Origin: Amphiscolops sp. MND2022
Lineage: Eukaryota
DNA length: 64,000 nucleotides
Direction: 5' to 3'
Assembly (NCBI GenBank): GCA_964187785.1
Contig: OZ076421.1
Location: 21,018,001 to 21,082,000 of the forward strand
The notes beneath the pieces were generated by a model. That model searched no databases. It had not been told where the DNA came from and was given only the letters and a program-made list of their open reading frames with translations. Positions 8,106-64,000 of this stretch are shown in pieces; the first letter of the stretch is position 1; the number at the start of each line of letters is the position of its first letter. Both the position numbers and the translations under genes were made by a program.

Positions 8106-8107
8106 AC

Positions 8108-11830: not shown

Positions 11831-11940
11831 GTGTCCACCCAGACTGATGTCCACTCCAACTGTTGATGTCCGCCCAATGTGTTGATGTCCGCCCAATGTG
11901 ATGTCCGCCCAATGTGATGTCCGCCCAATGATGATGTCCG
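11831..11940. repeat. Leader tandem array, ~7 units of 16-19 bp (GATGTCCGCCCAATGT core)
   Basis: Directly visible repeats abutting the PBS. Confidence 0.9.
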
Positions 11941-11953
11941 GGTCGGCGGACCA
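11938..11953 (-). promoter_or_regulatory. Primer-binding site TGGTCCGCCGACCCGG (tRNA-Tyr-like)
   Basis: 2 nt downstream of the 5' LTR. Resembles the TGGTCCTTCGAGCCGG type of PBS common in BEL elements. Confidence 0.65.
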
Positions 11954-11955
11954 AA

Positions 11956-12851
11956 TGTAACGGCTGCTTGATCCCTTCAATTGACCAAACTTTACGCCGC
12001 CCTGAATTCGGTGCTCGGCACTGCGGATCGTTACCGAACACTGCTTGCTTCGTAGATTAAAAGGACTGTATCTTGACTTAGTAGGATCCAATGATCCCGA
12101 ATTGCACTTCTTCCTTGTCTCTTAACACGTCCAACTCTCCACAAGTTGAGAGTAACTAACTTAGTCGCCCTAAGTCTTTGGCGAAAAGTCGAAAAGAGGT
12201 GAAGAAATGAATTGAGAATTGAAATGGTCCTAAGACCCAACTTGACTACAGCTATTCAGTCGTTAAAATCTCTCTCTAATACAGGTATACATGTGGTTTA
12301 CAATTCTACAGTAAATATAGAACAAATATCAGATGAAATATGTGGTATAAATAAATGACATTTAAAGCATAAAATGAAGTTATTGGCTAAGTAAACAAAC
12401 AATGTGGTGGTTTTGGCATGTTGGTCAGGTGGGTTAGAAAGTATGTTTACACAATGTAAATATCATTAATTTCAACAGAGTTACATTTCCTTCAAGGTCA
12501 CATGAGAAAATCATATAATAATTAATACATCAAAAATTGGGTAATTCATGGGGTCCGACCTAGGTCACTTTGGGTGTTAATAGCTCTGAACCCAGGGGAG
12601 ATACGGGGTAGCTTGTTAAGAGTGAAAAGTTAGTGAATCACCACCACTATATGTGTGCCAAGTTTCAAGGTGATTGAATGAGTGGTTTACAGGGACGGGG
12701 GGGTGGCCCTTTTTTACATAGGGTCATTTTTGCTTAGACTTGTATTTTTCCATCTAAAATCTTGATAAATTTTCTAAGTCTTTTGAGTTGTAAGTTTCAT
12801 CAGTCACGTTCGAATTTGAGTTTCTGATCTCGCAATTGACTGGCGCCAACA
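11956..12851 (-). repeat. 5' LTR of the BEL-derived element
   Basis: 896 bp, TG...CA ends, followed by a PBS on the - strand. Confidence 0.95.
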
Positions 12852-18914: not shown

Positions 18915-20567
18915 CCTGACTTTGCGATTTCGAAAACATTAATTTGAGATAACGAAATAACAAAAAAATTATTCAAACGTTTTCAAAACAGTAGCAGCAA
19001 AATTAGTGAATCACATCTTAATTCACTTCATATTTATACCTTTCTACCATCATTTGTTCACGAGCGCGTCACGAAGATCGACGATTAAAAACTTGGACTT
19101 CCGGTGTTAACACAGTGGTATCACGCCTGGCGTCCATACGCCGAACTTAAAATTCAACAAAGCCCAAATTCATGTGATCGCAAATTCCATCTACAGTAGG
19201 GAAACTCCTTAAGAGGAGAAAATGATTGAGCGACGGGCGTTATGGAACCGGATGTGGGAGTTTACTAAACTTCGTTTTCACCAAAACAACCCACTTTTGG
19301 TCTTGTAAAATGAGGGAAATCAGGAAAACGCGAAGAATAATTGCGATTTGTCGCGGGAAAGTGAGAAGAAAAATCTAGTTACTCGCGATATAGGAAGCGC
19401 TCGACAGTGATTCGTTCGTTTATGTGATGCTATGAAAAGAACTAAAGTAAGGGAATTTATGATGTTACACGAGTTATTTCTTTTAGAAAAAAACCGATTT
19501 TCATTTTTGCAATAAAGCTACAAAACACGAAACAAAAAAAACAAACAAAAACATTGCACCAAGCTCTTGGTAAGTGTGACGTTGAATATTCGTTAATATT
19601 TATTAATCAACACTACATGTAAGTGGCATCAGTTAGACGGTCATTGTTCAGCAACATCGACAGGTGATTTATGTTTAACCATTATCAAATATTGAGCATC
19701 AGGTTGTTATTTATACTACGAAGTACTTGGGAAGCTCACTTACTTTATACTCTTCAGGATAACTTCTTTGCTAAGCTGTATTCATATTCTGGTCAGATCG
19801 ACAAAGGGTTGACGTGAATCTAAATTCTCATTTTAGTCATCTTGCAACGTAATGTTGACGTAAATTCTAATTCAGTCATAGCTAACATTTCGATTTTAAC
19901 ATAAACTTCATTCCTTACATGCGCGGTGTGACGTAGTTGTGACGAAAACTTCTTTCCTTTTCCGCTTCGAGTGATGACGTAGTAGCGACGTAAATTACTA
20001 TTTTTGAGTAAGCAGCACTTGTGTTAATTTAGTGTAAACATTACTCGCGCGACCACCGCTTTATTCAATTAATTGCGGAATGATTTTTTGAAGATGCATT
20101 TTCTGAATGACCAATATTGACGTCAGTCACGCGACGGAGCGAGGGGCACACTTAAGCATTGTTTGGAGTGCTTTCACTGTATTCGTTTGTTCAACTAAAT
20201 CAATGTGTGCTAATTATTCGTGACATTAAATACCAATTTCGACAAATCTTTCTTTAGCGTAGTTGGTTGTTGCGCGGATTATTCCAAATGGAAATCAGAC
20301 AAATTATTCCTTTGCTTATTGATTCATTCCTCTTTATTTGTTCAGTGGTTCATTTGCGTTAACGTTTTTACGACTTCCTAATTTTGGTTCTTTCGGTTTA
20401 GTGTTTTGAAGTTAGATTAAGAGATACTCCCAAGTTATATCGTATTTTTAACCACAGTTTGTTTAGTTTTGTTTGAGTTGAATAATTCCAAGCGTTTAGG
20501 CATCCGTTTCCTGTTCCGAATGGTACTCGTTGACATGAACAAGCCAGTCCGGGAGCGGCCTGTGACA
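18517..20567 (-). repeat. 5' LTR of Gypsy A
   Basis: Homologous to 47-2132, with TG...CA ends. Confidence 0.85.
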
Positions 20568-20679
20568 GTTGAATTGAAGATGTTTTTTTAGTTAGTTACG
20601 CAGATGCGTTTTGTAAATATGCTCCTCAAAACGAAGATTTTTTCTACCCCGGTGTTATATATATCGTGGGGGGTTTTCA

Positions 20680-39241: not shown

Positions 39242-39441
39242 NNNNNNNNNNNNNNNNNNNNNNNNNNNNNNNNNNNNNNNNNNNNNNNNNNNNNNNNNNN
39301 NNNNNNNNNNNNNNNNNNNNNNNNNNNNNNNNNNNNNNNNNNNNNNNNNNNNNNNNNNNNNNNNNNNNNNNNNNNNNNNNNNNNNNNNNNNNNNNNNNNN
39401 NNNNNNNNNNNNNNNNNNNNNNNNNNNNNNNNNNNNNNNNN
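39242..39441. other. Assembly gap (200 N)
   Basis: Run of N. It hides the outer end of the 3' LTR of element B and its TSD. Confidence 1.
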
Positions 39442-39991
39442 AAAAACGATTTTTACTGATCTAAAATGTTAAATAACAAACACAACTTACATTTGGCTTG
39501 ATGGATGAAGTTATGGCTTCGATAATTTTCTGCTTCTGAAGATATTTCTGCAGGTGCAAGAAACTTATAAATAATTAATCCTGCACTGGGTAAGAGTGGG
39601 GTTTTTGATGAATGTTAAATAAAAGAGCAGCTGAATTGGGCGCATAAAATAATAAGAGCAGCTTTAAATAAGGGGCAGCTGAAAAAAGGGGAAGTTGAAT
39701 CAGACTCAACAAAATATTTATTACTGCAAGGCAGCTGAAATTTTAGAAACGACCACGAGGCTTTTTAAATTGCACACTGCTTGGAACTGCCTGGATAATT
39801 GTTTGTAAAATTTGTTTAAAAAGTAAAATGTGCGCACCCATTGTTACAATGTATATTAAGCAACGCAGTTAATTTTTTTTAATATATAGATGTGTATATA
39901 GCAACAGAGTGTATACGTGTACACTGTATTTGTATTAAGCAGTATTCATATATAAAAGTCATTTCCTGTTTGCTTAGCTCTGTATGCTACA
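39442..39991 (-). repeat. 3' LTR of element B (truncated by the gap)
   Basis: Matches 51432-51981. Begins TGTAGCATAC on the - strand. Confidence 0.9.
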
Positions 39992-40003
39992 CTGCCCTCC
40001 CCC
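39992..40003 (-). promoter_or_regulatory. Polypurine tract GGGGGAGGGCAG
   Basis: Immediately upstream of the 3' LTR TG. Confidence 0.85.
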
Positions 40004-40031
40004 GTGTGAGGCTGCGTCCTCGCCAGCCAGT

Positions 40032-41103
40032 TTATTCGAACCAGTCTGACATATGGGAGTCGCAATCCATGCAAGTCCGTAGTTTGCGACGAGCCCGGCG
40101 GACACCTGACATACCGCAACATTGATATATTTTATTCAATTGGGGATCGGTGAGGATGCTCTTAGCTTCTTTGAATCAAGGAATAAGTTGGGCGACATCT
40201 GCTGGATAGGATGGATTCTTGTCGGGGTGGACCAGGCGCAGGAGATGCCGAGCATGAATGTTTATCTTGGTAACATCTGAGGTTGGTGTCAGTCCGAGGA
40301 CATCGAAGAACAGGTTGTCATCATTGAAATCCAGGTCAATTGCATATGTTGACAGCTGATGGATTAGCATTTCTGTAGTTAGATGGGCATCTGAAACCCT
40401 GTTGGCGGCGAGTTTAAGGTTAGAGAGTTCTTCGCTTTGCTGCAGACTGTGTTGGAGCAAAGAGCTGTTTTCGTCGCTTAGGGCACTAAGGCGCGTCTTC
40501 AGGGCTGCTATTTCACTGTCTTTCTCGGCGAGGGCGACGACTTGAGAAGCAATGTTGGTTTGTAAACCAGCGAGCTCGAGTTTTGCTGTATGAATTTCCT
40601 TTTCCTTTGCCTTCCGAAGAGTCATTTCCTCGCAAAGGAGGTCGAACGTATGCTCACACTCGATGCGAGCCTTATTAGCTGCTGCACGGGCTTCTTCAAA
40701 ACCCTTATTGAGTTCGCCAACCGAAGAAAACTCTGATACTAAGAGTTCCATGCTGTCGTCAGCGTCGAGGGACGCATCCACCGCTACATCGCAGGTGTCC
40801 ACTATTAATTTAGGGGGTACTGGCGAGCAATCACAGATTGCTGGAGGGGGAGGACAGTCCACTTCCACGCTCAGGCTGTTACTGCTTGGAGGAGGAAGCC
40901 AGATTTCCGTAGCTGGTCGAGCAAAGCAACGATTACTTGAATTAATTTTTTGTAGCACAACAGTTTGTGTAGCGGGGTTTATTCTCTTGATACGATAATC
41001 GTCTTTGTCCAACAAGCGGACTACATATCCCTCTGCCAGAGGCTGCACGCGGCCGCTGCTGAGGAGGAAGGGCGCTGGAACTGGAGCTGCTGGAAACTGG
41101 AAC
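40032..41103 (-). CDS. 3' accessory ORF: coiled coil plus C-terminal DnaJ J-domain, with one in-frame TGA (40176-40178)
   Basis: FFDVLGLTPTSDVTKINIHARHLLRLVHPDKNP...AQLIP*FKEAKSILTDPQLNKIYQ. The frame is open from a splice acceptor (TTTTTTTGTTGTTTCAG|G) at 41103. Confidence 0.75.
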
Positions 41104-41224
41104 CTGAAACAACAAAAAAACTGATTGCACCGATTACACTTTGTACGAAAATCCTACTTAGGATGCGGAAACGCATCTGCTAGACACTAATTGTTTAAAC
41201 AATTAGGAAAAAACTTAATTGCGG

Positions 41225-41533
41225 ACACGGAAACGTGTGTTGTGAGGCACTAGTTGCGTAGCGAAGCAACTAGGAGAAAAAGACAGCTTAGCGAAAAGAG
41301 ATTCACCACGGAAACGTGTATCAAAACAGGCGCTAGTTGCGTAGTGAAGCAACTAGGAAGGAAAAGACAACCTAAGGGAAAGTAACGGAACACGGAAACG
41401 TGTAAAACAGGCACTAGCTGCGTAGTAAAGCAACTAGGAAGGAAAGGCAACCTAGAGGAACGTAAGTAACACGGAAACGTGTAGAACAGGCACTAGCTGC
41501 GTAGTAAAGCAACTAGGAAGGGAAATCCTAAGT
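41225..41533. repeat. Four ~80-bp tandem units, each containing two hairpins
   Basis: ACACG-GAAA-CGTGT and CTAG(T/C)TGC-N8-GCAACTAG recur in each unit. Confidence 0.85.
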
Positions 41534-41588: not shown

Positions 41589-44015
41589 TCAGGTCGAAGT
41601 AGACTCATAAGTAGGCGCACTAATATTAGGATAATCACGTGGTGGAAGTGTAGGGGCGTTGGGTGCAGTGTAATTGGATGGTTTCGGTTCAGCTTGACGA
41701 AAGGTTTCGCGAGCCAGCAAAATCAGTGCGCGGAATTCAGCGTCCGTCAAATACAAAAATGGAGAATTGGTCAAATCATACTCCGCGGTAATTGATTCGA
41801 CTATATTAATGAATCTACCGGAAGTAGCCCGGAAAAAGCGTTGAGGATTGGTAAAAAGACGCTGCCAATGACGTCTAAACAAAGTAAAACTTATAGAAAA
41901 TGTTAAAATAGACATTGTAATGGACAATGACGAAAGTAAAAAAGCAGTACGGGTGGGTAAATATGACTGTAAAGCTGCTGATGTGGCCGGCGAGATCGAA
42001 GAATAATACTTAGCGATTGGCTCTGTCAGTTGATCTAGAGTCTCCGGCGACATGTGTTGGACGTCAGGTAGTTCGGCTAGTTCCATTCGTAGACTGCCAA
42101 GAACTGACTGACGAGCTTCACTAGTAGAATATGCCTGAAATTCGGCGCTACCAATGGCGGGTACATGCGCGAAGACTTGATTCAAAGACGGTGTCAGCTC
42201 AATCGACGCAAGAAAAGGCTCCGGTCGGGTCTCACAAAAATCCATGTCAGGGTGAAGAACCAGTTCACCCTGGTTGAAAGACAGTGTACTCGAACAGCTA
42301 GGGCGTATGACACACGCCTGACAGGTGATAGTAGAGATAGAAAGGCCGTCAATTTGGCTATCGTTTTTGAATTTGAGGGTGGGAGACCGCGATATGACGT
42401 GGTACATTCCATCCGCCAAATAAAAAGCCTGAGGAGCGTCGGGTAAAAGTACTGCGCGGACTTCGCAATTGCGTAAGGCGGGAACATCGTAGTTATAGAA
42501 CAAGGATCCTAAGCAAAGAAGAGTTTCATCGGTTGTTGTCGAGAAGCCTTTTCTACATAATTTAATACGATTGTTACCCGAACATTGCTGCAGCGTATTA
42601 GCACCGAGTTCTGCAAATCTACTATTGTCAGTAGATACGGCCAAAAAAGGGTTCGCAAAATTGAAGAGCGACGCAGTCTTCTGGTCATTGTTGGGCTGAT
42701 ACAGAGGCGTGGCATGGTAAATGTGAAACGTCGACGACTTTGAATTCATTGGGATCCCAAGAATGACAGATATACCACGTGGTATCAAAGTTACTTCGAG
42801 TACTAATTGTATCTCATAGTATATTGCCTCAAAACCAGGTCGAATAGCTGGGGACAGTTTGGTGCCTCGCTTTACTTCGTCATCTGCTAAGTCTTTGACA
42901 ATTTGCGCCACTTGTTGAGGCAGAAGAAACTGAGGTGTGATGTAGCCACTAGCTAACGAGGAAATGGTGGAGTAGAGCGAAATGCGGTAAGCGTAAAACG
43001 CTGCACGGTACGACTTGAGATGAGTGTAAAGTGTCCCTAGCTGATAGACGTATTTTCGCAAGAATTGCTGAAGGCTAAGGTGACGAATAATCACTCTATC
43101 ACACTCAAGGCTAGTCGCAGCCAAGTAGCGAGTAGCATTAACTAGGTAAAACTCCATTTGTTGGAAGCGGAGACCGACACTTTCTTTTAGTTTCTGGACA
43201 CTTTCCTGGGTCTGTTTAATCTCGTTTCCTAGAAGGAAGAAATTCTTGTCGTTTCGAGTTTGAACACGCTGCAGTGTATCAACAATTTCTTGCTGTGTGC
43301 TCATTATGCGTTCCACGTCGCGACTCAGATCTTCATTGGTGTGACAGAGGTTAAATATAGAAAGCGCACTACAAGCGGCGTCTTTGATTGGTTCACCCAA
43401 GACCATTCCGGCACCTGCTGCGATTGCAGCAATAGCGGCAATTGCTCGACGTGGTCGTGCGATGTCATCAGATTGTCTAACAGCTGGTGGAATGAAAGAA
43501 TTCACAACTTCCAGAAGAGTGTCTTCCTCTTGTTGAGCTGCTGCCAACTCTGTTTGCAGGAAATTGACTCTTGTCACAAGTTGTTGCAGGAGGAGGTCAT
43601 AGGTGTCATTAACGTCTGTAAACTTGCAGTTTGTATTGATGTACATACTTCCGATGCTTCCAGGGGCTGTCTGGAAGGCATTGATCATGTTAATGGCATT
43701 GGTAATGTTGATTAGAGGCATCTTGGGGAAGGGAGAGAACACGCGGACTTTGCTTTCGCTCTCCGAGGTAACAGCTTGGTATTTGAACACAAACGCTGCA
43801 CCTTTCTTGAATACGGGTTTTTCCAGGTCATCGTTGAGGTGTGTTGTGAACTGCACATCCGCAAAGATCAGGACCGACCAACGGACAAACAGAAAGAGAA
43901 ACCAGAAATGTTGAGAGTTTGGAAAGTAGGAAATCCTGAAAAACAGAGGAGCCTTGTTAGGCCATTGGTGATGGGAAATGACCTGGAGAGAGAAATAAAA
44001 TGCAACTACTTGAAG
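41589..44015 (-). CDS. env: Envelope glycoprotein (class I fusion, F-like); no in-frame ATG before the signal peptide
   Basis: Signal-like HFWFLFLFVRWSVLIFA just upstream of the listed GTG. Furin site RPRR followed by hydrophobic AIAAIAAIAAGAGMVLG, then a heptad-like helix, Cys-rich ectodomain, several N-X-S/T sequons and a TM segment AFLLSSLSITMSILTFSISFTLF. Confidence 0.85.
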   Translation of the reverse strand, partial: LQVVAFYFSLQVISHHQWPNKAPLFFRISYFPNSQHFWFLFLFVRWSVLIFADVQFTTHLNDDLEKPVFKKGAAFVFKYQAVTSESESKVRVFSPFPKMPLINITNAINMINAFQTAPGSIGSMYINTNCKFTDVNDTYDLLLQQLVTRVNFLQTELAAAQQEEDTLLEVVNSFIPPAVRQSDDIARPRRAIAAIAAIAAGAGMVLGEPIKDAACSALSIFNLCHTNEDLSRDVERIMSTQQEIVDTLQRVQTRNDKNFFLLGNEIKQTQESVQKLKESVGLRFQQMEFYLVNATRYLAATSLECDRVIIRHLSLQQFLRKYVYQLGTLYTHLKSYRAAFYAYRISLYSTISSLASGYITPQFLLPQQVAQIVKDLADDEVKRGTKLSPAIRPGFEAIYYEIQLVLEVTLIPRGISVILGIPMNSKSSTFHIYHATPLYQPNNDQKTASLFNFANPFLAVSTDNSRFAELGANTLQQCSGNNRIKLCRKGFSTTTDETLLCLGSLFYNYDVPALRNCEVRAVLLPDAPQAFYLADGMYHVISRSPTLKFKNDSQIDGLSISTITCQACVIRPSCSSTLSFNQGELVLHPDMDFCETRPEPFLASIELTPSLNQVFAHVPAIGSAEFQAYSTSEARQSVLGSLRMELAELPDVQHMSPETLDQLTEPIAKYYSSISPATSAALQSYLPTRTAFLLSSLSITMSILTFSISFTLFRRHWQRLFTNPQRFFRATSGRFINIVESITAEYDLTNSPFLYLTDAEFRALILLARETFRQAEPKPSNYTAPNAPTLPPRDYPNISAPTYESTST

Positions 44016-47000
44016 TTATGTCTTTTTTGTATACTTTTTGGAACGTTTGGTGGAATGTGGCATGCTGTGCAGTGGCGGCGAGTTGAAATCGGTTAGTTCA
44101 GAAGGTATTGAGGAATTACACAGGGGTTCCGCCAATCGCTGTGTGCGTGTACTTGCGCGGAGATTGTATGGTCTGTTTATCATATCTCGAAACTGAACAG
44201 CAGCGTTTTCAACGATGTTTCGGGATTCGTTTGACAAAGGTGTATGGGATGCTGGTGCTTGACGATAACTAGGGTTGTCGACTGAAGGAGTTGCGGGAGT
44301 GGCCATCGTCTGAACGCCAGGAGATTGAAAAGATTGGGAATGCTGATTACCGGAGAGGAAAGCGGGAGTTCGGGTTTGGGTCGGTGACTGAGCATTGTGG
44401 CTAGTTGATTGTGGCGTTGGAGTAGTCTGGTGGTTCAGGTGAGCAGGGCTGTGGAGATTCATAGGCTGCAGTGGTGGCTGTTGAAAATGCATGCAGCATC
44501 GATGCGAGGTTTCAGGTGGTGTGGTGTTCAAGTCGTTATTCCGTGTTGGGACATTGGAGTGAACTGGTTTTGTGGGCTGGGTTGAGCTAGTATTTCGAGT
44601 AGGCACATTTGAAGTAGCTGGTTTTTCGCAAAAAGGTTTCAACCTATCGTAGTGAACGATCAGCTCTTTGGACGTAGACAATTCTCTTATCTTGTATGTG
44701 ACCTCATTGAAACAGTCAAGTATCACATATGGACCACGCCATGGGTTGTGGAACTTGGTTGTTTGGCCAACTGGGACCACCGGTGTGTGGAGCAACACTT
44801 TCAGTCCCTGTTCGTAGGTAGGACCATGGATCTTCTCGTTGTAAATTGCGTTGCGACGTTTTTGGTTTTTATTAATGTTGGCTCGCACTAGTTCGAAAGC
44901 TCTTTGGAAGGCCAATTTTCGATTGTATACAAAATCCGTAGGCGACATTGTTTTTTCGGTTTCAGGTGCAGGGTGCATCAAATCGATTGGCAAGGAAATT
45001 TCTCGCCCATGAACAAGAAATTGAGGCGAATATCCGGTTGATTCATGTACAGATGACCGGTAAGCCATCATTACGTAGGGTAACTGTTGGGACCAGTTAC
45101 TTTGTTCAGCGTTTACGCATTTTGCTAGCATGTTCTGGATTGTTCGATTCATTCGCTCGATCACTGCATTAGACTGGGGCCTAAAAGCAGTTGTTCTTGT
45201 TTTGTCAATGTGAAGGCTTGTCATGAGCGTCTGGAACAACTTGGACTCAAAATTACGTCCTTGATCACTATGTATGCTGTAGGGACAACCAAATCGACAG
45301 ATCCAATGTTCGATAAGAGCGGTAGCCGTTGTTGTAGCTTGCTGATCTGGCAAGGGAATTGCTTCATACCATTTTGTGAAATGATCCCCGATCAACAGAA
45401 TTACTTTGTTTCCATTCGAGGCCGGCAATGGGCCCATGAAATCGATTCCAATGTGGTGAAAGGGATAACTAGCTTTCCACTCTACAAGGGAATGACGATG
45501 TGTTTTGGGAGGGTCCGAGCGTCGCTGACATTCGGAACAACGTTTTATGAAAAGTTTGATATCCTCTTTGAAACCAGGCCACCAAAAACGCTGTCGAACT
45601 TTCTCCATCACCTTGGCTAAACCTAGATGTCCACTGGTAGCGGAAGAGTGCAAGTTTGTTAGGATATGTTCTACCAAGGTACGGGGAACAATTTGCTGTA
45701 GGTACGGAAGTTCACTTCCAACTGGTTCATACCGTCGACAAAGGACGTCATTGGCCAGATATAAACTGTGGAATTGATTGTACAGCTTCCATGCTAACTC
45801 GGGACTTCCTTGTAGGTTGTTATTCCGCGGCACACGACCCCTGCGAACCCATTCTTTTACGATCTTCAGGGCCTCGTCCTCATCTTGAGCACTGCGGACA
45901 TCAATGTGCGCATGCACTGGTTCATTATCTTTAGCGGTTTCTACGGGTGGGCCTTCGCTCTCAAGTGAAATTGATGGAGGCAAATAAATAGTTATACATA
46001 CATTGGATCCGTCAAAGACTTCTCGGATGAGTCTGCGAACCAAATCCCAGTCAAGTTTATCATTTCCACAGCCTATTTGAGGCATACTAATCTTTAGGAC
46101 GTCGTTCGTTTCAGCATGGCTACGCATGTGTTCCAGAGAAGCTCGAAGTGAAGTATATGTTGGCTTTTGGTAGTAACGTTCCTTAGTCAGCAAGTGATAC
46201 AGGAAACGGCCGTCACCAGGTAATGGTTGTACCCATAGTGGCACAGTTTGCTTCGATATGTCCTCTGGATACTGTGCTGGGAACTTCCTTTTGAATGATC
46301 GGGCTATTCCAGAACTCATTTTAAAATCAGCTGAGATACAGTGAGCTAGGGACTCAGAAGAACTGAACAAATCGCCCTTCACCTCGCGATACTTGACAAT
46401 CCCTGTTTCTGTAATGACTAGTTCTTCTTGTAGAGGCTTTTCTTGTGGTTGCTCATGTTCGAGAAGATCGCCGGTTTTGTCCTTGCTGTGAATATTAGTT
46501 TTTGCGTTGAGTTCAATGACAGCTTGGAGTGGTATTGATGCTGTATCTCTAGGCAATAGATGAACACTGTAGTTAGATTGTGCGTTGGGCCACTCCTCGT
46601 CATTGTTGCAATTCTTCATTTTTGTTGCACCTGGGACTCCTGTTCGGCATTCTTGCGTTAATTGGACGGATTCAGTTGGTATTCTGGACAGACTGTCGGC
46701 ATGTCCGATAGATTTGCCTGGTCTATGTTGCACTTCGTAATCGAAAGCTGCTAGTTTTTCCATCCACCGTGCAATGAGACCGTCGGGGTCCTTGAAATTG
46801 TGTAACCAGCGAAGTGCACTATGGTCTGTGACAATTTTGAATTTTCTTCCGAGTAGGTAATGTCGGAAGTACCGAGTGAAGTGGACCATTGCCAGAAGTT
46901 CTCGTCTCGTCACTGAGTACTTTGATTGGGATTTGGAGAATGCCTTTGATGCATAGCAAATAGCACGTTCCTGGCCATTTTGTACTTGGGCTAGAACGGT

Positions 47001-48956
47001 TCCCATTGCTAGTTGGCTGGCATCCGTGTAGAGGATGAAAGGATCTTCCATTGTTGGGAAGGCTAAAATTGGTGTTGTGAGGAGTCGTGCTTTTAGATCT
47101 TCAAACGCTTGCTCTGCCTCGGTTGTCCACTTAAAAGGCGAGTTGGTTTCACTCGCTTTATGCAAGGGACGAGCAATTTCAGCGAAATTTTTGATGTAAC
47201 GTCTATAGTAGGAACAAAGGCCCAAGAATGACTTCACCTGTGTCTGGTTAATTGGGACCGGAAACTCTTTAACAGCTGCGATTTTTGTGGGGTCGACTTG
47301 AAGGCCTTCTTTGCTGATGACATGGCCCAAGAAGTGGACTTTGTTGCGAAAAAATTCGCATTTTAGGGGGTTTATTTTCAAGTTGGCTTGTCTAAATCTG
47401 CCTAGAACTTCCCTTACTCGTTTTAAGTGTTCCTCCGGTGAAGCGGCAAAGATGATACAATCGTCAAGGTAGGGGACTGTTGTTTTCCAGATAAGTTTCG
47501 CCAAAACGATTTCCATTAAATTTTGGAACGTCGGTGGACTGTTCGTGAGTCCCATCGGCATTACAAGCCATTGGAAGGAACCAAAAGGCGTGCTGAATGC
47601 AGTATACTCTTGACTGGTTTCGTCCAGGGGCAACTGGTAGAATCCCCAACTCATGTCTATAGTGGAGAAGACAGAACTTCCATCTAGAGTATCGAAAATT
47701 TCTTCAATCGATGGGATTGGCCAGCACGACTTGATTGTTTGACTGTTCAATTGCCTATAGTCAATGACCAGGCGGAGTTTGCCGTTTTTCTTCGGGACCA
47801 GCATGGCTGGAGCACTGTAGGGGCTATGACAAGGAGCTATCAATCCCTTGTCCAGAAAAGCGTCTAATTTCTCTTGGAGATCCTGTTTATAGTGGAGAGG
47901 CATTCTTCGATTGGGAATTTTAATCGGCTTTGATCCTGGGTATAAGTTTATTTTGTGTGTTGTGGCTTCGCAACGACCAATGTCCCATTGGTTTTGCGAA
48001 AACACATCTTCGAACTCGTAAACAAGTTCTGCAAATTTCTGTTTTACTTTGAATGGAATTTCCGGGCTAACTCCATCCACGACGTTTTTCAAATCGTACG
48101 ATTCGTCTTTTTCGTCTATTTTAGACTTCAAGCTTTTTGTTTCGGTTACTATATTTTGTATGGGTAAATCAGGGACTACTTCTGAAGTACCCAAAGTCGT
48201 CTTCTCATACAATATTAGTGGCTCTTCTCCGGAGTTTTCTATCGTTACCGGGATGTTTTCTTCACCGATGTTGAACACAATGCTTGGGGCCACTGCATCT
48301 TTACAGCCATCGAACCGTTCGTGCGGCTCGAAAATTGCTACACCCTCATTCATTGGGCGGTTCCAGTCCTTGATGTGCGCAGGCACTATCATTGTATGTC
48401 TTGGCGGTACCGAAACTGTCTCCGACACCACCACTCGGAACACTGTTGTCGTAGCGTCAGTGAGCTGACGATGATACAGGGGGACTGTCGTCTTTTCATC
48501 AAGACGCAGTATATCTTGGGAAAACAACGGGTCACATTTATGAGTTCTAAGGAAGTCTAAGCCGAGTAGACAGTCAGCTTCTGCTTGCTCCAGAACGTGA
48601 AACGCATGTTCGTAATGTCTCGGACCGATTTGCAAAGGTAGTTGCACAATGCCGCGTGTTACTATAGGTTGTTTGTTGGCTGCTACTAGCTTCGTGTCTG
48701 ACGGTTTTAGCTCTAATTTCTTCCCGTTCTTCAATTTCCCAAATGCATCAGAACTCAGGCAAGACACACTTGCTCCACTATCACACACAGCCTCAATCAC
48801 CGTATTAAAAATAGATAATTGGACAAATACACTTCTGTGATCCACCACAGAGTTAAGAGTCTGAATTTGTGGGCCTCGGTTTGTGGTCTTGTCTGCGCTC
48901 TGACCCGCTAGCGTAGACATTTCTAGTTTAAATGTTCCCTTTTGGCAGCCTTGCAT
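44016..48956 (-). CDS. pol: Pol polyprotein: protease, RT, RNase H, macrodomain, integrase
   Basis: Motifs AVCDSGAS (protease), YLDD (RT), LYTDAS...TDHSAL (RNase H), H-x6-H...C-x2-C and IGIDF...HSDQG...ERMN (integrase), and a GPY-like RGPY motif. Confidence 0.97.
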   Translation of the reverse strand: MQGCQKGTFKLEMSTLAGQSADKTTNRGPQIQTLNSVVDHRSVFVQLSIFNTVIEAVCDSGASVSCLSSDAFGKLKNGKKLELKPSDTKLVAANKQPIVTRGIVQLPLQIGPRHYEHAFHVLEQAEADCLLGLDFLRTHKCDPLFSQDILRLDEKTTVPLYHRQLTDATTTVFRVVVSETVSVPPRHTMIVPAHIKDWNRPMNEGVAIFEPHERFDGCKDAVAPSIVFNIGEENIPVTIENSGEEPLILYEKTTLGTSEVVPDLPIQNIVTETKSLKSKIDEKDESYDLKNVVDGVSPEIPFKVKQKFAELVYEFEDVFSQNQWDIGRCEATTHKINLYPGSKPIKIPNRRMPLHYKQDLQEKLDAFLDKGLIAPCHSPYSAPAMLVPKKNGKLRLVIDYRQLNSQTIKSCWPIPSIEEIFDTLDGSSVFSTIDMSWGFYQLPLDETSQEYTAFSTPFGSFQWLVMPMGLTNSPPTFQNLMEIVLAKLIWKTTVPYLDDCIIFAASPEEHLKRVREVLGRFRQANLKINPLKCEFFRNKVHFLGHVISKEGLQVDPTKIAAVKEFPVPINQTQVKSFLGLCSYYRRYIKNFAEIARPLHKASETNSPFKWTTEAEQAFEDLKARLLTTPILAFPTMEDPFILYTDASQLAMGTVLAQVQNGQERAICYASKAFSKSQSKYSVTRRELLAMVHFTRYFRHYLLGRKFKIVTDHSALRWLHNFKDPDGLIARWMEKLAAFDYEVQHRPGKSIGHADSLSRIPTESVQLTQECRTGVPGATKMKNCNNDEEWPNAQSNYSVHLLPRDTASIPLQAVIELNAKTNIHSKDKTGDLLEHEQPQEKPLQEELVITETGIVKYREVKGDLFSSSESLAHCISADFKMSSGIARSFKRKFPAQYPEDISKQTVPLWVQPLPGDGRFLYHLLTKERYYQKPTYTSLRASLEHMRSHAETNDVLKISMPQIGCGNDKLDWDLVRRLIREVFDGSNVCITIYLPPSISLESEGPPVETAKDNEPVHAHIDVRSAQDEDEALKIVKEWVRRGRVPRNNNLQGSPELAWKLYNQFHSLYLANDVLCRRYEPVGSELPYLQQIVPRTLVEHILTNLHSSATSGHLGLAKVMEKVRQRFWWPGFKEDIKLFIKRCSECQRRSDPPKTHRHSLVEWKASYPFHHIGIDFMGPLPASNGNKVILLIGDHFTKWYEAIPLPDQQATTTATALIEHWICRFGCPYSIHSDQGRNFESKLFQTLMTSLHIDKTRTTAFRPQSNAVIERMNRTIQNMLAKCVNAEQSNWSQQLPYVMMAYRSSVHESTGYSPQFLVHGREISLPIDLMHPAPETEKTMSPTDFVYNRKLAFQRAFELVRANINKNQKRRNAIYNEKIHGPTYEQGLKVLLHTPVVPVGQTTKFHNPWRGPYVILDCFNEVTYKIRELSTSKELIVHYDRLKPFCEKPATSNVPTRNTSSTQPTKPVHSNVPTRNNDLNTTPPETSHRCCMHFQQPPLQPMNLHSPAHLNHQTTPTPQSTSHNAQSPTQTRTPAFLSGNQHSQSFQSPGVQTMATPATPSVDNPSYRQAPASHTPLSNESRNIVENAAVQFRDMINRPYNLRASTRTQRLAEPLCNSSIPSELTDFNSPPLHSMPHSTKRSKKYTKKT
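45980..46400 (-). other. TARG1/OARD1 (Poa1p-like) macrodomain embedded in pol
   Basis: VKGDLFSSSESLAHCISADFKMSSGIARSFKRKF...FLYHLLTKERYYQKPTY...ISMPQIGCGNDKLDW closely follows the TARG1 pattern as I recall it. Confidence 0.9.
48885..48932 (-). promoter_or_regulatory. -1 ribosomal frameshift signal (U UUA AAC plus downstream stem-loop or pseudoknot)
   Basis: Slippery heptamer at 48932-48926 directly before the gag stop. After a 7-nt spacer comes the stem GTCTACGCT/AGCGCAGAC; loop GGTC can pair with downstream GACC. pol is in the -1 frame. Confidence 0.8.
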
Positions 48957-50143
48957 TCATTCTGGAAATGACCGACTCTCAAACAATTGAAACAAACTTT
49001 GCACTCCTTCGTTGTATGATTTTTGCGTGTGCAACGCTCGCACGGCTTCCGATTGTTTTGCGTGTTGTTATTGTTACCTTGTTTCTTGGGATGGGGGGAA
49101 TCTTGGCGATACTGTTGTTTTTGTGTTTTGTCAGATCTGCCTGCGTTATTTGGTCGTTCGCGTCCTTGTGACGACTGAAATCGTACTGACTGGCCACTCC
49201 GAGTGGAATCATTACTCTGCGATCTCGAGTGATCATATCTGTTTGATGATTTTGTGTCTCCTCGTTGATGGAAATCATTATTGGACCGATACGTTGACGA
49301 CTGAAGTTCAGTTTGTAATGATCGAACAAAATCAGCCATAATTTTGGACGCTGATGGCTCCGCTTCAGAAGAAGTACTAACTCGGTTAACTGTTTGAGCG
49401 GCTTGGGGGTTTCCGTTCTCAATCTCCAGGAACGAATTCAGCTCCATAGCCAAGGACAAAGCATCATCCGCTGTGGCTAGCTTGGCTTTTCGGAGCTCCC
49501 ATCGAAGCGTTTTGTCGCTTAACCCTTCAATGAAGCACGTCAGAACTACCGGATCAATCATAGCAGGATGATCCCGATATGCACGACGCGCCAGCGTCCG
49601 AACGTCACATAGGAAAGATGAAATATCTTGGTTGGGTTGCTGCTTCGCGGCTTTCAATCTTGCTTTCAGAATATCGCCATTAGTTGTGTAATTCTGGCGG
49701 AACGCGTCAACGAGCATATCGAAGTTAGTTTGTTGTGATGGAGACAACGTAGTGTAGAAATGCAAAGCATTTTCTCTCAATCGCAACGCAAAATAATGTG
49801 GTCTGTTATCGTGTGCGTTCGAATACCAGCCTGAGAGAAGTGCTGCTGTGTTAAATTGTTGCAGGTAATCTTCGAAATCACCTTTTCCTGTGAAAGACTC
49901 TGGCATCAGACATGACGGAAGCGGGGCTATGTATGGAACACTTGTTGGGTTTTGTCTACCGCCAGGCAGAGTGAAAAAGGAAGCTGTTGGGGTTGTACTA
50001 GTGTTAGGAGTTGTAGAACCCACGGTGGGTGCTTGTGCTGGTGCTTGGGAGCTACTTGCACCACCACTAGTAACTGGGGTTGTAATGGTATTGGTTACCG
50101 CTGTCGAGGTGGCCGTTGTGGGGGTGCTTGGTTGAGTGCTCAT
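48923..50143 (-). CDS. gag: Gag (406 aa from the first ATG)
   Basis: Capsid-like region (PESFTGKGDFEDYLQQF) and C-terminal zinc knuckles CERCTRKNHTTKEC and CFNCLRVGHFQNEC. Confidence 0.93.
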   Translation of the reverse strand: MSTQPSTPTTATSTAVTNTITTPVTSGGASSSQAPAQAPTVGSTTPNTSTTPTASFFTLPGGRQNPTSVPYIAPLPSCLMPESFTGKGDFEDYLQQFNTAALLSGWYSNAHDNRPHYFALRLRENALHFYTTLSPSQQTNFDMLVDAFRQNYTTNGDILKARLKAAKQQPNQDISSFLCDVRTLARRAYRDHPAMIDPVVLTCFIEGLSDKTLRWELRKAKLATADDALSLAMELNSFLEIENGNPQAAQTVNRVSTSSEAEPSASKIMADFVRSLQTELQSSTYRSNNDFHQRGDTKSSNRYDHSRSQSNDSTRSGQSVRFQSSQGRERPNNAGRSDKTQKQQYRQDSPHPKKQGNNNNTQNNRKPCERCTRKNHTTKECKVCFNCLRVGHFQNECKAAKREHLN

Positions 50144-50863: not shown

Positions 50864-51093
50864 ATCAACAAAAAAAACTCGCGGCGGTTATTAGAATTTA
50901 GGTTATCAAAAAGAAAACGGAACTATTTTGATAGAAATGTTACAAAAAATTGGCTACTGTTTGTTTTATGACAAGCACTTACCGTGTAACTTCTTAAAAC
51001 TTAAGGGCATTGGGTCAAATGTGCCATTTTAAAGCCTGAGACACGCCGAAGCGGAAAGACACAGCATTGAGCTGGAAAACTAGGCACGGACCA

Positions 51094-51981
51094 TGTCCGG
51101 ATTGGGAATCTTATGGGCAACACTGGCGAACCAGGAAATGGCACATTTCAAAAAAAAATTTTTGGATCGGGTCTAGGACTAAGAATGTTTTGATGGGGGT
51201 TCTAAGTTACTTTAATTTTTTTTGTAAAAAAAACTTCTCTTTTTACAAATATCCCACTCCTGTCACCATTTTAACAATCGCTTTTTACTAGATTTCTATT
51301 CGTTTCAACTTTCGATGGGCGGGGCGATTGTTAGGGTAAATGGATATATTTTGTTTTCAAAAATGACTAGTGGATATTTCTAAAAAAAGGACAAGAAAAA
51401 AGTCTATAAGAATATGAAAACTCAATGTTAAAAAAACGATTTTTACTGATCAAAAATGTTAAATAACAAACACAACTTACATTTGGCTTGATGGATGAAG
51501 TTATGGCTTCGATAATTTTCTGCTTCTGAAGATACTTCTGCAGGTGCAAGAAACGTATAAATAATTAATCCTGCACTGGGTAAGAGTGGGGCTTTTGATG
51601 AATGTTAAATAAAAGAGCAGCTGAATTGGGCGCATAAAATAATAAGAGCAGCTTTAAATAAGGGGCAGCTGAAAAAAGGGGAAGTTGAATCAGACTCAAC
51701 AAAATATTTATTACTGCAAGGCAGCTGAAATTTTAGAAACGACCACGAGGCTTTTTAAATTGCACACTGCTTGGAACTGCCTGGATAATTGTTTGTAAAA
51801 TTTGTTTAAAAAGTAAAATGTGCACACCCATTGTTACAATGTATATTAAGCAACGCAGTTAATTTTTTTTAATATATAGATGTGTATATAGCAACAGAGT
51901 GTATACGTGTACACTGTATTTGTATTAAGCAGTATTCATATATAAAAGTCATTTCCTGTTTGCTTAGCTCTGTATGCTACA
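51094..51981 (-). repeat. 5' LTR of element B (inner boundary inferred)
   Basis: The outer end is certain from the match to 39991. The inner end is inferred from ...GGACA followed by the PBS-like TGGTCCGTGCCTAG (51093-51080). Confidence 0.65.
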
Positions 51982-58777: not shown

Positions 58778-61700
58778 TGTGACATTATTATGCATTACGT
58801 CACAATTAGGTTCAGACCATAGAGGTTATCATTGTACTTAGACAGTCAAGAACCTGTCAGCATTTGAGTTTGATACCGCTTGTACATGTATATTATTACT
58901 ATAGCATAACGTTCCTATGAAAGTCAGTTGAGATTAGAACGGAATAGGAATACATTGTTACAAGCTGATTCTCCTTCACCTTACCATTACGAAGATATAG
59001 AACATGGCGCAGTCAGATTGAACAAAATGGAAAATAGCAAAATTTTGGAGAGCACAAGCTCTTCAAACGGAGAAGCCTCGGAACGAGGAGACACAAAAAA
59101 TGAGGAAACACATCGAAAGATTTTCCTACCCACTTTCGAGAAAAGGGGAATTCAAGAAGCCAAACTGTGCTGGCGCATTTTCACACAGTACACAAACATG
59201 AAACAAAACATTGATCTGAATATAATGACCACCGACAGAGAAAAATTGGAAAAAAATCGAGCAGAACTCGAACAACGTATTAAAGACATATTTGAATGGG
59301 CACTGTGTGAATGTGCCATCACCGAAATGACCAGGACCGTTCGAGACAAGGATCCAAACAGAATGGATATAAACCAAATATATTCATTAATCAGACTACA
59401 TTTCATCCCAGAACGCAACAAGTTTCACAGCCGAGCCGATTTTTTCGGTATTTAAAGAGAGAAAAATGAAACAGCTGAAGACGTCTGGACACAACTTCTA
59501 CAAGTAGAAAAGAATTGCGAATTCGAAAACATGACCCCGACAGAATTAATCGCCTCAAAGTTTCTATCCCTGATCGGAAAATCAACGGAGGATTATGAAT
59601 TGAAGAAGAAAATACGAAAGAGCGACATGACCATTGAGACAATTACGGACGAGATACAGGAGTTATCTACAAAAATTTGAACGAGTCACACATTTCGAAC
59701 GATGGCAAAGAGATAAACACATTCAAGAACTACAATACAAACAATAATGGTCTGATAAATCCAGTTACAAAAGACCCAAGAAGAAACCGGACAGTCAAAA
59801 ACCAAAATACAAAGAAAACCGATGCGGACAATGCGGCGCACCAAAATGGTCAAGAATGCACAACTGTCTGGCAAAATCAGCCGAATGTCGTAAATGCAAA
59901 AGAAGGGGACATTACGAGAAGATGTGCAGATCACTGAAGAAAATACAACACATCGAATGAATGTCATCATCAGCAGAAGAAGACGATTGGAATTACAACA
60001 AACTTCAGAAGATAAATGGTAACGATCACAAAATCTTTTACAAACAACACAAGTGGTTAACGAGAGGCAAACCAAATTCATTAGAGACAGCGGCTCACCA
60101 GTCACACTAATCCCAAATTGCTTATTCAACAGAACAACTGAAGTGGAACCACTAATTACCACTTATAGAGATGAAAAGAACCATCAGATTTAATCCAATG
60201 GACAAACAAAAGCACTGGTGAAAACAAACAACAAGACGATAAAAATACCACTACTGATAACAAAAGCAACATCACCGTTGATGGGATTAGACTTGATGAA
60301 ACGGCTGGGAATACACCTCAATGCAGCAAACAGCGAAATACAAATAAACAACGTCAAACTGGATGACACCGAAAGTAAAACAGCCCAACTTAAACACGAA
60401 TTCAAGGATCTATTCTACAATAACAAAGAGAATAAAGATCTATCAGTGAAAATCAATGTAAAAGAAGGGGTACAAATTATACAACAGAAAAGACGACCAA
60501 TACAAACACACTTACAAAAACAAGTGGCAAAAGAACTTTAAAACGATTGATAGAAAATGGACATCTGGAAAGAGCGACCAAAATAACTGAAGACTGTTTC
60601 GTGAGTCCCGCAGTAAAAACAGTAAAGAAAGAGAAGTGAGTCAAAATAGCACTAGATTCACGAATAATGAACGAAGTAACATTAAAACGAAAAGCACAAA
60701 TGCCATACACGGAAGAACTAATTTTAAGGTTTTCAACAAAATTATCAGAAGGAGATGACGGTGAAACTCTGGCAACAAAACTAGGTTTCGAGTATGCCTA
60801 CGGACAAATTAAACTAGACGAAAAGACAAGAAATCTATGTATATTTACAGTTAAGGGTAGAGAATTCACTGACTACTACCGTTTCTTGAAAAGATTTTAT
60901 GGTCTGGCAGGTAACCCAACAATTTTCCAAGAACGGATCAATAGAACACTGGAATACAAACATCCGGAAGGGCTTCACTATATAAAATTAGTAACGAAAG
61001 GAGATGTAAAGAAACACGAAGCAGAAGTAAGAGAAACGATGAAACAACTCGAAAACGCTGGTTTCAGACTAAACCCAAAGCAGTGCGAATTCTTTGACCG
61101 AGAAATTGAATGGGTGGGTCAAAAATTTGACCAAATTAAAAAAGATCGAACAATTGGAAAAAGAAGAACCAACAGCAGAAACACTTGTCTTAACAAATAG
61201 ATGGAAAGAACTGGTCGAAGCGAACGGTTATAAAATGACGAGTGGAGTCTGGAAGAAATATAACACCGCCAGATTTCACCGAATGGAAATTAAACGATAA
61301 TGAAAAGGAACTAGACCAAAAAATGAACAGATAAAGAAACCTGGCAAAGAATGGAACAACATAGTAAAGAAACCCTGGAAGAACGAGAACTGTTCAGACA
61401 GACAAAACATACGAGAAGAACTGTTCAGAGTCATTGAAAAAATCAGAAACACACCAATCCAAAACAATACGAACGAACAAGGGACCAGTAAAGACACGAC
61501 AACAGAAGAAACGGATGATTACAGCGAAGAAACAACATCAAACAATTCAAACGACTCAATGGATGTACCGGCGATAAATTTCGAACAGTACCTGGGAGTA
61601 CGGGAGCCAGGTACATTCGAATGGGCCAAGCAAGTCACGTCCATGAAAATAAGGAATGTAACCTATAAGAAACAAAAAGGCAGGATCAACAAACAATATA

Positions 61701-64000
61701 GGAACCTTAAGAAGAAACAAAAAGGCAGGCTGAGCAAAAGTTTTCAACAGATCTAAAGATGATCGCAATGGAAACAACAAACGATGACAAACTGTTAAAA
61801 ACATAAGTCTGCATGAAACGAAAAACAACAGCACGAATCCCCGACGACTACAAACAGTACATCAAAAATCTATTACCATGATTCGGGGCAATGATCTACG
61901 ACGACAAGATAATACTGCCAAAAAGACTTAGAAACACTCTAATCACCCTACTCCATGAAAGACATCCTTTGACTGACAAGATGCCGCACGCAGCAAAACC
62001 ATTTTGATGGCCAAGGAAGAGCGAAAAAATTCAACAAAAAAGCGACGAATGTATACCCTGCAAAGTGACAGGTAAGAACATTAAGCCTCAATTACCAATG
62101 ACAGAGGTTAATTACTCACCACCAATCGAAAAACCAAACCAAGAAATTCAATTGGATTTCATTGGACCAATAGGATTTGAACAAAGACGATTCTTCGTAT
62201 TAGTATCAATATATTGATACAGTAGGTGGCCTGCAGCGTGCATCTGCGAAACACCTACATGCAAAACGGCAACAAGTTTTTTGGAACAAGACATAATCCG
62301 TAATGGATGACACCGAAAGAAAAACAGCCCAACTAAAACACAAATTCAAGGATCTATTCTACAATAACAAAGAGATTAAAGATCTATCAGTGAAAATCAA
62401 TCCAAAGGAAGGGGCACAAATTATACAACAAAAAAGACGACCTATACCAACACACTTACAAAAACAACTGGCAAAAGAATTTTAAAACGATTGATAGAAA
62501 TTGGATATCTGGAAAGAGCAACCGAAATAACTGAAGACTGTTTCGTGAGTCCCGCAGTATTAACAGTAAAGAAAGACAAAAGAGTCAAAATAGCACCAGA
62601 TTCACGAATAATGAACGAAGTAGCAATAAAAGGAAAAGCACAAATGCCATACATGGAAGAACTAATTTGAAGATTTGCAACAAAATTATCAGAAGGAGAA
62701 GACAGTGAAACTCTGGCAACAAAACAAGATTTCGAGTATGGTCTGGCAGGTATCCCAACAATTTTCCAAGAACGGATCGATAGAACACTGGAATACAATC
62801 ATCCGGAAGGGCTTCACTACATAACAGTAGTAACGAAAGAAGATGTAAAGAAACACGAAGCAGAAGTAAGAGAAACGACGAAACAACTCGAAAACGCTGG
62901 TTACAGACTAAACCCAAAGCGGTGCGAATTCTGTAAACGAGAAATTGAATGGGTGGGTCATAAATTTGACCAAATTAAAAAAGATCGAACAATTGGAAAA
63001 AGAAGACCCAACAGCAGAAACACTTGTCTTAACAAATAGATGGAAAGAACTGGTCAAACCGAACGGTTATAAAATAACGAATGGAGTCTGGAAGAAATAT
63101 AACACCGCGAGATTTCACCGAATGGAAATTAAACGAGATTGAGAAGGAACTAGACCAAAAGATGATCAGACAAAGAAACCTGGCAAAGAAGGGAACAGCA
63201 TAGTAAAGAAACACTGGAAGAACGAGAACTTTTCAGACAGACAAAACAAACGAGAAGAACTGTTCAGAGTAATTGAGAAAATCAGAAACACACCAATCCA
63301 AAACAATACGAACGAATAAGGGACCAGTAAAGACACGACAACAGAAGAAACGGATGATTTCAGCCAAGAAACAACATCAAACAATTCAAACGACTCAATG
63401 GACGTACCGGCGACAACTTTCGAACAGTACCTGGGAGCGACGGGAGCCAGGTACATTCAAATGGGCCAAGCAAGTCACGTCCATGAAAATAAGGAATGTA
63501 ACCTATAAGAAACAAAAAGGCAGGATCAACAAACAATATAGGAACCTTAAAAAGAAACAATAAGGCACGCTGAGCAAAAGTTTTCAACAGATATAAAGAT
63601 GATCGCAATAGAAAGAACAAACGATGACAAACTGTTAAAAACATAAGTCTGCCGGGAATGAAAAACAACAGCACAAATCCACGACGACTACAAACAGTAC
63701 ACCAAAAATCTATCAACACGATTCGGGGCTATTATCTACGACGACAAGATACTAGTGCCAAAAAGCCTTAGAAACACTCTAATCACCCTACTCCATGAAG
63801 AACATCCCTTGACTGACAAGATGCCGCACGCAGCAAAACCATTTTGGTGGCCAAGGAAAAACGCAAAAAAATTCAACAAAAATGAGACGAATGTATACCC
63901 TGCAAAGTGACAGGTAAGAACTTTAAGCCTCATTTACCAATGACAGAGGTTAATTACTTACCACCAACGAAAAAACCAAATCAAGTAATTCAATTGGATT
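58778..64000 (+). mobile_element. Decayed Ty3/Gypsy element C (short LTR, PBS TGGCGCAGTC at 59005, gag and pol fragments), running off the window
   Basis: gag-like LHFIPERNKFHSRADFF, protease-like DSGSPVTLIP, RT VSPAV...ALDSR, and integrase QEIQLDFIGP. Many stops. The LTR start is tentative. Confidence 0.75.
60361..64000 (+). repeat. Tandem duplication of ~1.94 kb of element C pol (60361-62303 and 62304 to the window end)
   Basis: Both units start GGATGACACCGAAAG and are colinear. The second unit has a deletion in RT near 62740. Confidence 0.85.

Follow-up and report, generated by a model that had tools for sequence, protein, structure and literature searches.

The window (the whole stretch of 64,000 nucleotides analysed here) carries on its minus strand a Ty3/Gypsy element of ~12.7 kb with the layout LTR-gag-pol-env, and behind env lies a fourth gene, ORF4, which encodes a J-domain protein (Table 1). 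The element has an LTR pair, a primer-binding site and a polypurine tract; gag is followed by protease, RT, RNase H and integrase in this order, and an env of the F-type stands behind pol. The two LTRs are 99.1% identical (550 nt compared), and the target-site duplication of this copy is hidden by the N gap at its 3' end. We take the primer-binding site to be of the leucine tRNA type. In the overlap between gag and pol, TTTAAAC stands directly before the gag stop (48923-48932, minus), presumably as a slippery heptamer for -1 frameshifting.

Table 1. Features of the J-domain-encoding element in the window
Feature	Position	Strand	Details
5' LTR	51269..51981	-	about 713 nt
Candidate splice donor in 5' LTR	51476..51486	-	exon ends AT (51482-51481), intron starts GTAAG (51480)
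Primer-binding site	51251..51268	-	starts TGGTGACAGG...
Leader ORF, 89 aa	50594..50863	-	proline-rich stretch with PPSY, then one strongly hydrophobic helix
Leader ORF, 132 aa	50185..50583	-	conserved PCxxCQ...H
gag	48923..50143	-	zinc knuckle; 34-nt overlap with pol
pol	44016..48956	-	protease, RT, RNase H, macrodomain, integrase (Pfam)
TARG1/OARD1-like macrodomain	45984-46385 (approx.)	-	E 3e-34 (human OARD1); lies after RNase H and before integrase
env acceptor	43936-43943	-	TTTTTCAG/G, phase 2, exon from 43935
env exon, F-type	41589..43935	-	frame of 808 codons
Four tandem repeats, ~81 nt	41225..41524	-	family D18; between env and the ORF4 acceptor
ORF4 splice acceptor	41104..41120	-	T-rich tract, TTTCAG, G; phase 2; exon starts 41103
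ORF4 coding exon (J-domain accessory gene)	40032..41103	-	357 codons, including an ATG probably made by splicing
N-terminal five-stranded beta barrel, KOW/Tudor/SH3-like	40899..41075	-	AlphaFold2; barrel alone pLDDT 74
Long helix, predicted coiled coil	40395..40721	-	model residues 128-236, pLDDT 85-97
J-domain	40125..40310	-	Pfam, PDB profile, fold; HPD at 40221-40229
Premature TGA	40176..40178	-	private to the window copy
Cysteine-rich tail	40035..40121	-	[C/H]CG-x(10-16)-CxxC; pattern in 19/25 sequences
Polypurine tract	39992..40007	-	from sequence; adjoins 3' LTR
3' LTR	39442..39991	-	runs into N gap 39242-39441

The env product has a signal-peptide-like start, RPRR (a furin site) followed by a hydrophobic peptide, and a hydrophobic segment at its C-terminus. 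Pfam gave no match for the env of the window itself. Among its relatives, the env of copy L033 reaches 23 bits on Baculo_F, below the cut-off of 24.1, and PF12259 matches the env relatives P0221 and P0233 (48-50% identity); a comparison of env with the PDB returned a weak 'fusion protein' match (E 0.001). The two leader ORFs, for neither of which Pfam has a match, sit between the primer site and gag, a position that recalls the sORFs of MDG1-group elements, and both are kept across subfamilies at about 25-50% identity. Throughout the subfamilies the 89-aa ORF carries PPxY or a variant of it and a single membrane helix; the 132-aa ORF is duplicated in L054/L060, followed by a third ORF. Over the stretch of the macrodomain, Pol of a second family in this genome (described below) has no match, and our literature search found nothing on a macrodomain in Gypsy Pol.

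Elsewhere in the window, two 897-nt direct repeats, 99.8% identical, stand around a minus-strand frame of 992 codons (8108-11086) for which Pfam has no match, and this region (6661-12851) is a young LTR-like element. A 2.1-kb duplication (46-2133 and 18516-20568) is 86% identical, and tandem units of about 1.84-1.94 kb (92-95%) occupy 60360-64000.

An interrupted J-domain frame and its predicted protein

In the window copy, ORF4 is interrupted after codon 309. The frame is open for 325 codons (40176-41153, minus) and ends with ...HPDKNPSYPADVAQLIP at a TGA, past which it goes on for 47 codons to a TAA at 40032-40034; the 3' LTR starts at 39991, 40 bases beyond the last base of this TAA. A sequence-only reading of the locus had proposed a retroelement-encoded DnaJ J-domain whose helices III-IV lie in the same frame behind the stop. 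Both parts of this proposal are borne out by Pfam. Read through with X at the stop, the product matches DnaJ (PF00226) at 32.7 bits over model positions 2-62, or at 36.0 bits for the domain alone, and passes the cut-off of 27.8. The truncated product reaches 21.7 bits over positions 2-37, below the cut-off, and helices III-IV thus sit behind the stop.

The J-domain is divergent, its 32.7 bits comparing with 60-99 bits for host J-domains; open genomic copies of ORF4 score 33-47 bits. DnaJ is matched by 13 of 16 ORF4 members at E<=0.01, and the other three miss the family. Of 24 aligned relatives, 20 retain the HPD motif, even at identities of about 25%, and four lack it. A PDB search with a profile of 16 relatives returned J-domains, the best being that of DNAJC5 (E 9e-10), which points to a cellular source as the ultimate origin of the ORF4 J-domain. 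Because the J-domain is C-terminal and none of the 16 members matches DnaJ_C or DnaJ_CXXCXGXG, we assign the protein to class C rather than to class A/B (Hsp40). Its product has no membrane segment (highest hydropathy 0.84).

For the stop itself, the sequence-only reading had offered two explanations, a nonsense change specific to this copy or a read-through site. Comparison of the codon across copies upholds the former and speaks against the latter. The genome searched (1.07 Gb) contains 137 ORF4 matches, and the 30 loci listed correspond to 28 distinct places. All 28 cover the stop codon, and 27 are open there, the stop being present in the window copy alone; a further 11 divergent copies are open at this codon in the alignment, and two more rows are gapped by frameshifts. 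Among 12 close copies, the window ORF4 shows four private codon changes (one silent, two replacing and the stop), ten sister copies show 0-5, and L009, which is the single member of its sublineage, shows 47. About 3.4% of random changes in the ORF4 frame yield a stop. Judged from this distribution among copies, the TGA is ordinary nonsense decay after insertion, or an assembly error. It is true that the frame is clean for 47 codons beyond the TGA and that the 90 nt behind it are foldable (-16 kcal/mol, a value without a shuffle control), as might be expected of programmed read-through, from which two products of different length would arise. We nevertheless hold such a site to be very improbable: the stop is found at one of 28 places, the 11 further divergent copies are open, the four private changes lie within the range of the sister copies at a rate of 3.4% stops per random change, and to our knowledge TGA-TTC is not a known read-through context. 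As a feature of the family, read-through is rejected, since the stop occurs in no other copy.

AlphaFold2, run on 16 ORF4 sequences, gave a model with a pLDDT of 79 and a pTM of 0.33, the latter too low for domain packing to be read from it. In the model, a disordered linker containing CxC joins the N-terminal beta barrel to a helix of 109 residues, behind which come the J-domain and the cysteine tail. The long helix, whose structural neighbours are coiled coils, agrees with the long coiled coil that had been noticed from the sequence, and the J-domain is modelled with the four helices of a J fold (Z 8.8, rmsd 2.6 and 73 aligned residues to ERdj5 J). Consistent with this, the top rows of a Foldseek search are all J-domains (best E 0.002), and a viral structure library returned J-domain matches only. 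The N-terminal barrel is a middling match to Spt5 KOW (VIA Z 7.2, rmsd 2.2, 56 aligned); its best neighbours are Spt5/NusG KOW domains (Z 7.2-6.9) and, in effect tied with them, Tudor (6.7), with chromo-like folds within 1 Z unit. Identities are 12-19%, and the match points to no particular ligand. Pfam gave no match for the barrel, and the ESM Atlas gave no usable one. A match of the barrel profile to HTLV-1 capsid (E 0.003) was set aside, as the model is all-beta there and the matched capsid domain is helical. The tail carries a basic patch in the window subfamily, which is absent from other subfamilies. An LxCxE at residues 172-176 was also discarded: it lies inside the coil, occurs only in the closest relatives (3/25 sequences) and has a chance of 0.1 per protein.

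For docking, the J-domain plus tail was taken from a database relative with an open frame and modelled together with a cytosolic Hsp70 of this genome, ATP and Mg. The resulting model scored 0.68, against 0.09 for the best of three controls, with 97% contact agreement between runs and a partner pLDDT of 79. In it, helix II, HPD and helix III are predicted to touch the linker of Hsp70 and the surfaces next to it. In the calibration, 51 of 78 solved pairs and 2 of 108 mismatched pairs reached the mark, but the present job (with ligands and a eukaryotic pair) was unlike those pairs. Because like complexes of J-domains with Hsp70 have already been solved (5nro) and the model may reproduce them, we take the docking as a sign of likeness rather than of binding. 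Recruitment of host Hsp70, which the sequence-only reading had suggested, is supported by motif, fold and docking model as a prediction.

Probable splice sites and a splice-made start codon

ORF4 has no conserved ATG near its start in the alignment of copies. The strong acceptor that had been noted at 41103 is real and conserved, its AG/G being found in phase 2 in 18 of 20 copies (the frameshifted L049 was left out). Behind it only phase 2 is long-open, with 308 codons to the stop versus 53 and 26 in the other two phases. Likewise, only phase 2 is long-open behind the env acceptor, and env in two other subfamilies lacks, by eye, a methionine of its own before the signal-like segment.

A donor for both genes may lie in the 5' LTR. 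An AT/GT stands 194-244 nt before the primer-binding site in all 20 copies with a recognised site (one further stretch has no match to the site); among the 20, the donor is GTAAG in 16, GTTAG in three and weak in one (L062). The strict donor motif occurs once each in five of the six subfamily LTRs, at a chance of 0.4-0.5% per LTR according to shuffles, which is to be read in the light of the motif having been picked after the data were seen. At the donor spot these six LTRs share no alignable sequence. Joining a donor exon that ends in AT to an acceptor exon that begins with G gives an in-frame ATG for both ORF4 and env. From these sequence features, the start codon of ORF4 is probably made by splicing from the LTR donor, which would also serve env.

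Other donors were considered and set aside. The window contains a second good candidate donor at 50982 (G/GTAAGT) with a 9-codon upstream ORF in phase 1; its ATG is in phase 1 only, and a number of subfamilies lack the site. Some other subfamilies have donor-like sites about as far from the primer-binding site. Donor sites internal to gag are not conserved.

Conservation, age and wider occurrence

ORF4 is not a one-off host-gene capture, the outcome against which the sequence-only reading had been staked: besides its many matches in the genome, it follows env within about 1.5 kb at 29 of 30 env loci. At the remaining locus (L160), an insertion has probably separated env from ORF4, which stands as an orphan at a distance of 29 kb. 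Conversely, of 20 stretches picked because their ORF4 matches are divergent (29-81% identity), 19 have env upstream and 18 have pol. Directly behind env, ORF4 is missing in two far F-env lineages (L140 and L174, 23-24% env identity), so that ORF4 marks one clade and is not needed by every F-env element.

Within this clade ORF4 is old, conserved and under purifying selection, and it codiverges with integrase. Of 21 pairs compared, the nine unsaturated ones between sublineages have dN/dS of 0.11-0.24; nine more are near-identical (0.08-0.75) and three are saturated. The J-domain alone has dN/dS of 0.10-0.29 where computable. Shared ORF4 variants are synonymous in 54 cases and replacing in 26, against a neutral expectation of 23:73. 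Trees of ORF4 (13 rows) and integrase (20 rows) give an identical unrooted order of five subfamilies, the ORF4 tree carrying a long-branch warning and both trees holding elements of this genome only. ORF4 diverges much faster than integrase, with about 31% versus 66% identity. In L002, L007, L009 and L013 the gene is mosaic. Its barrel, coil and J-domain differ strongly there in synonymous distance, which between L002 and L007 is 0.04 in the barrel and saturated in J; such sharp differences along ORF4 suggest that modules have been exchanged by recombination. In 15 of 18 copies the two LTRs match each other at 98% identity or more, which indicates that the clade was recently active, and 4-bp target duplications are visible in several copies.

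A further J-gene subfamily, 65% identical to P0083, is represented by a frameshifted gene in L136 (1256-2295, minus) with the same TTTCAG/G acceptor. L136 also retains a remnant of env and has a direct repeat of 349 nt around the J gene, and it is possibly a deleted non-autonomous copy. Tandem arrays of env-ORF4 or ORF4-end segments are found in L140, L050 and G000:C5:72380000-72387000.

A DnaJ search of the genome also recovered another repeated set, L107-L118 (e.g. G000:C3:17348000-17358000). This is a second Gypsy family, whose Pol is about 40% identical to that of the window element and whose LTRs measure 510-540 nt; its env is gB-like (63-67 bits on Monjiviricetes_fusion). Two tandem genes, each preceded by an AG, stand between env and the 3' LTR, and each encodes a J-domain (49-61 bits) after a short N-terminal domain and a predicted coil. 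Between the two families only the J-domains are detectably related, as the whole-protein match covers J alone, and HHalign detects no homology between the N-terminal domains (probability 0.2%). In the ESM Atlas, the best score for the protein of the second family is 0.81. The copies of this family have decayed neutrally (private synonymous:replacing changes 17:47 and 16:63). A quick tree places both element families on one side versus the host with a support of 61, which fits one or two J-domain origins. In two trees, the J-domains of the window clade cluster together (support 100/98 in one and 98 in the other), separate from 14-15 J-domains of the host, and the host DNAJC5-like row L087 is not sister to them with support.

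Relatives exist outside this assembly as well. We found 141 cluster representatives at E<=1e-10, most of them probably from the same or close species. One cluster, P0102, whose six members come from NCBI and ENA, shows every part of the ORF4 architecture, but its best full-length identity to a sequence of this genome is 27%. One of its members and an F-env relative are records of equal size (3,477 nt), which suggests that ORF4 and env are linked in another organism too. JGI metagenomes hold one relative, on a 1.5-kb contig.

Proposed function and known systems

We think it likely, from sequence and structural models, that ORF4 is a spliced accessory gene whose product is a class C J-domain protein that takes a client bound by its barrel to cytosolic Hsp70. 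Splicing of a subgenomic RNA in working copies would join the 5' LTR donor (AT) to the acceptor at 41103 (G) and make the ATG, and the same LTR donor would serve env. The 357-residue product, free of membrane segments, would bind its client through the barrel, while the coiled coil would oligomerise and act as a spacer. The J-domain would then bring in cytosolic Hsp70 and trigger its ATPase, and the client would be remodelled or dismantled. In the window copy, ORF4 would have been lost through an ordinary nonsense mutation after insertion.

If Hsp70 is indeed recruited, the leading candidate for the client, at somewhat short of even chances, is a host restricting or silencing complex, because ORF4 diverges fast, is absent from other F-env lineages and shares its element with a TARG1-like macrodomain. 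Less probable, yet a serious candidate, is the element's own capsid or RT-RNA complex. It is favoured by the uses that SV40 T makes of its J-domain in capsid morphogenesis and replication (PMC3486835) and by the hepadnaviral RT, which is activated by Hsp70 and needs it (PMC2094093); some other client is the least probable of the three. The host-directed case can be widened into a counter-defence kit, in which a Tudor/KOW-like barrel would hand a silencing or restriction complex to Hsp70, beside a TARG1-like ADP-ribose eraser and two leader proteins, with J-domain genes behind env recurring in F-type and gB-type elements and in more than one animal. We regard this wider picture as speculative and rather unlikely.

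Other roles for a selected gene have to be weighed against client delivery. The J-domain might be a decoy that occupies the J-binding site of Hsp70, damping chaperone-dependent silencing or stress responses of the host, or it might be a plain interaction module. Helices II and III are divergent and Pfam scores are low, docking cannot separate an activator from a competitor, and in plants host J-domain proteins act with Hsp70 in transposon silencing (SILENZIO; PMC8616336). We judge such a role improbable, however, since HPD is retained in those 20 of 24 relatives to about 25% identity, the models preserve the four J helices as well as the complete interface, and a dedicated N-terminal binding domain seems to fit client delivery better than titration. 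Slightly less probable again, in our estimate, is a transactivator of transcription or RNA export of the kind encoded by the 3' accessory genes of complex retroviruses, whose KOW-like barrel would bind RNA or the Pol II elongation complex and for which the J-domain would be secondary. The Spt5/NusG KOW domains are the best neighbours of the barrel, the tail of the window subfamily has its basic patch, and the spliced gene adjoins the 3' LTR; but Tudor and chromo-like folds lie within 1 Z unit, identities are 12-19% only, and the patch is missing from other subfamilies. A transactivator would also be compatible with client delivery.

That ORF4 is a host DnaJ fragment, captured once and passively carried, is scarcely credible. 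The match to the DNAJC5 J-domain speaks for it, but purifying selection and co-divergence with integrase, the well-supported separation of the clade's J-domains from those of the host, and the presence in public assemblies of a relative that reaches just 27% identity to its best match in this genome all argue against it. We conclude that delivery of a client to Hsp70 is the likely role of ORF4. If the protein works as modelled, it would provide a handle on which life-cycle step or host defence is chaperone-limited. It is known that both retroviruses and retrotransposons make use of chaperones of the host, and DNA viruses encode J-domain proteins of their own.

None of the three ingredients is new by itself: Gypsy elements with an envelope gene, additional ORFs in LTR elements and J-domain proteins encoded by viruses have all been described. 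The unusual part is a conserved J-domain gene in a retroelement, and its being hidden behind a stop is ordinary. The N-terminal barrel, the putative splice-made start codon and the wider family go beyond what had been read from the sequence alone. A literature search to which Repbase, most subscription journals and preprint supplements were external found no retroelement-encoded J-domain protein in the texts accessible, and a prior mention is possible.

Among cellular proteins, DNAJC5 (cysteine string protein) has the best-scoring solved J-domain; the match reaches past helix IV, and cysteines follow the J-domain there too. In contrast to ORF4, however, its J-domain is N-terminal and it has no barrel or coil. 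Virus-encoded J-domain proteins include those of polyomavirus T antigens, Molluscum contagiosum virus and the RB43-type phage protein Rki (PMC3486835), and the viral structure library adds those of giant viruses and baculoviruses. As with T antigens and other viral J-domain proteins, ORF4 would supply its carrier with a class C J-domain that redirects the Hsp70 of the host, but the viral carriers named are DNA viruses, whereas the carrier in the window is a retroelement. T antigen has an N-terminal J-domain followed by Rb-binding, origin-binding and helicase parts. ORF4 differs in having its J-domain C-terminal behind a barrel and a coil, with no helicase and no conserved LxCxE; Pfam finds no origin-binding or SF3 helicase domain in ORF4 members.

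LTR elements with captured ORFs offer a second comparison. Extra ORFs of bdelloid LTR elements encode a DEDDy exonuclease, a GDSL esterase and ORF3s with coiled coil and TM segment (PMC5408684), orchid LTR elements carry AlkB (PMC12786077), and MDG1-group elements have sORF1/sORF2 (PMC11952523). To judge from the accessible parts of these papers, in which the keywords DnaJ and J-domain are absent, such elements likewise place cellular genes, often spliced, either in the leader or downstream of pol, ahead of the 3' LTR, and their extra genes are common to distant element types, as here; in the window, by contrast, the extra gene comes in addition to env. The proposed start codon has a precedent in Drosophila endogenous retroviruses of the springer subclade, whose env is spliced from an upstream exon and donor ending in the same AU dinucleotide (PMC12992720), but the AT donor of the window element is within the LTR itself and seems to be shared by two genes further downstream.

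The closest known systems are the envelope-carrying Ty3/Gypsy elements, errantiviruses in the wide sense, of which Chary and Hayashi surveyed 1,512 (PMC13524379). In its available portion, the main text of that survey contains none of the terms DnaJ, J-domain, chaperone, macro, accessory and ORF4, and its seven supplements, as far as accessible, contain neither DnaJ nor J-domain nor Hsp40. With those elements the window family shares the LTR-gag-pol-env layout and the many near-identical copies, and its F-type env and the gB-type env of the second family are both env types of errantiviruses. To the elements of that survey, as available, the window family adds the J-domain gene behind env, the two leader ORFs and the TARG1-like macrodomain. 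With three or more accessory genes, and with two spliced genes that would start from one splice-made ATG, it indicates that invertebrate envelope-carrying Gypsy elements can match complex vertebrate retroviruses in gene richness.
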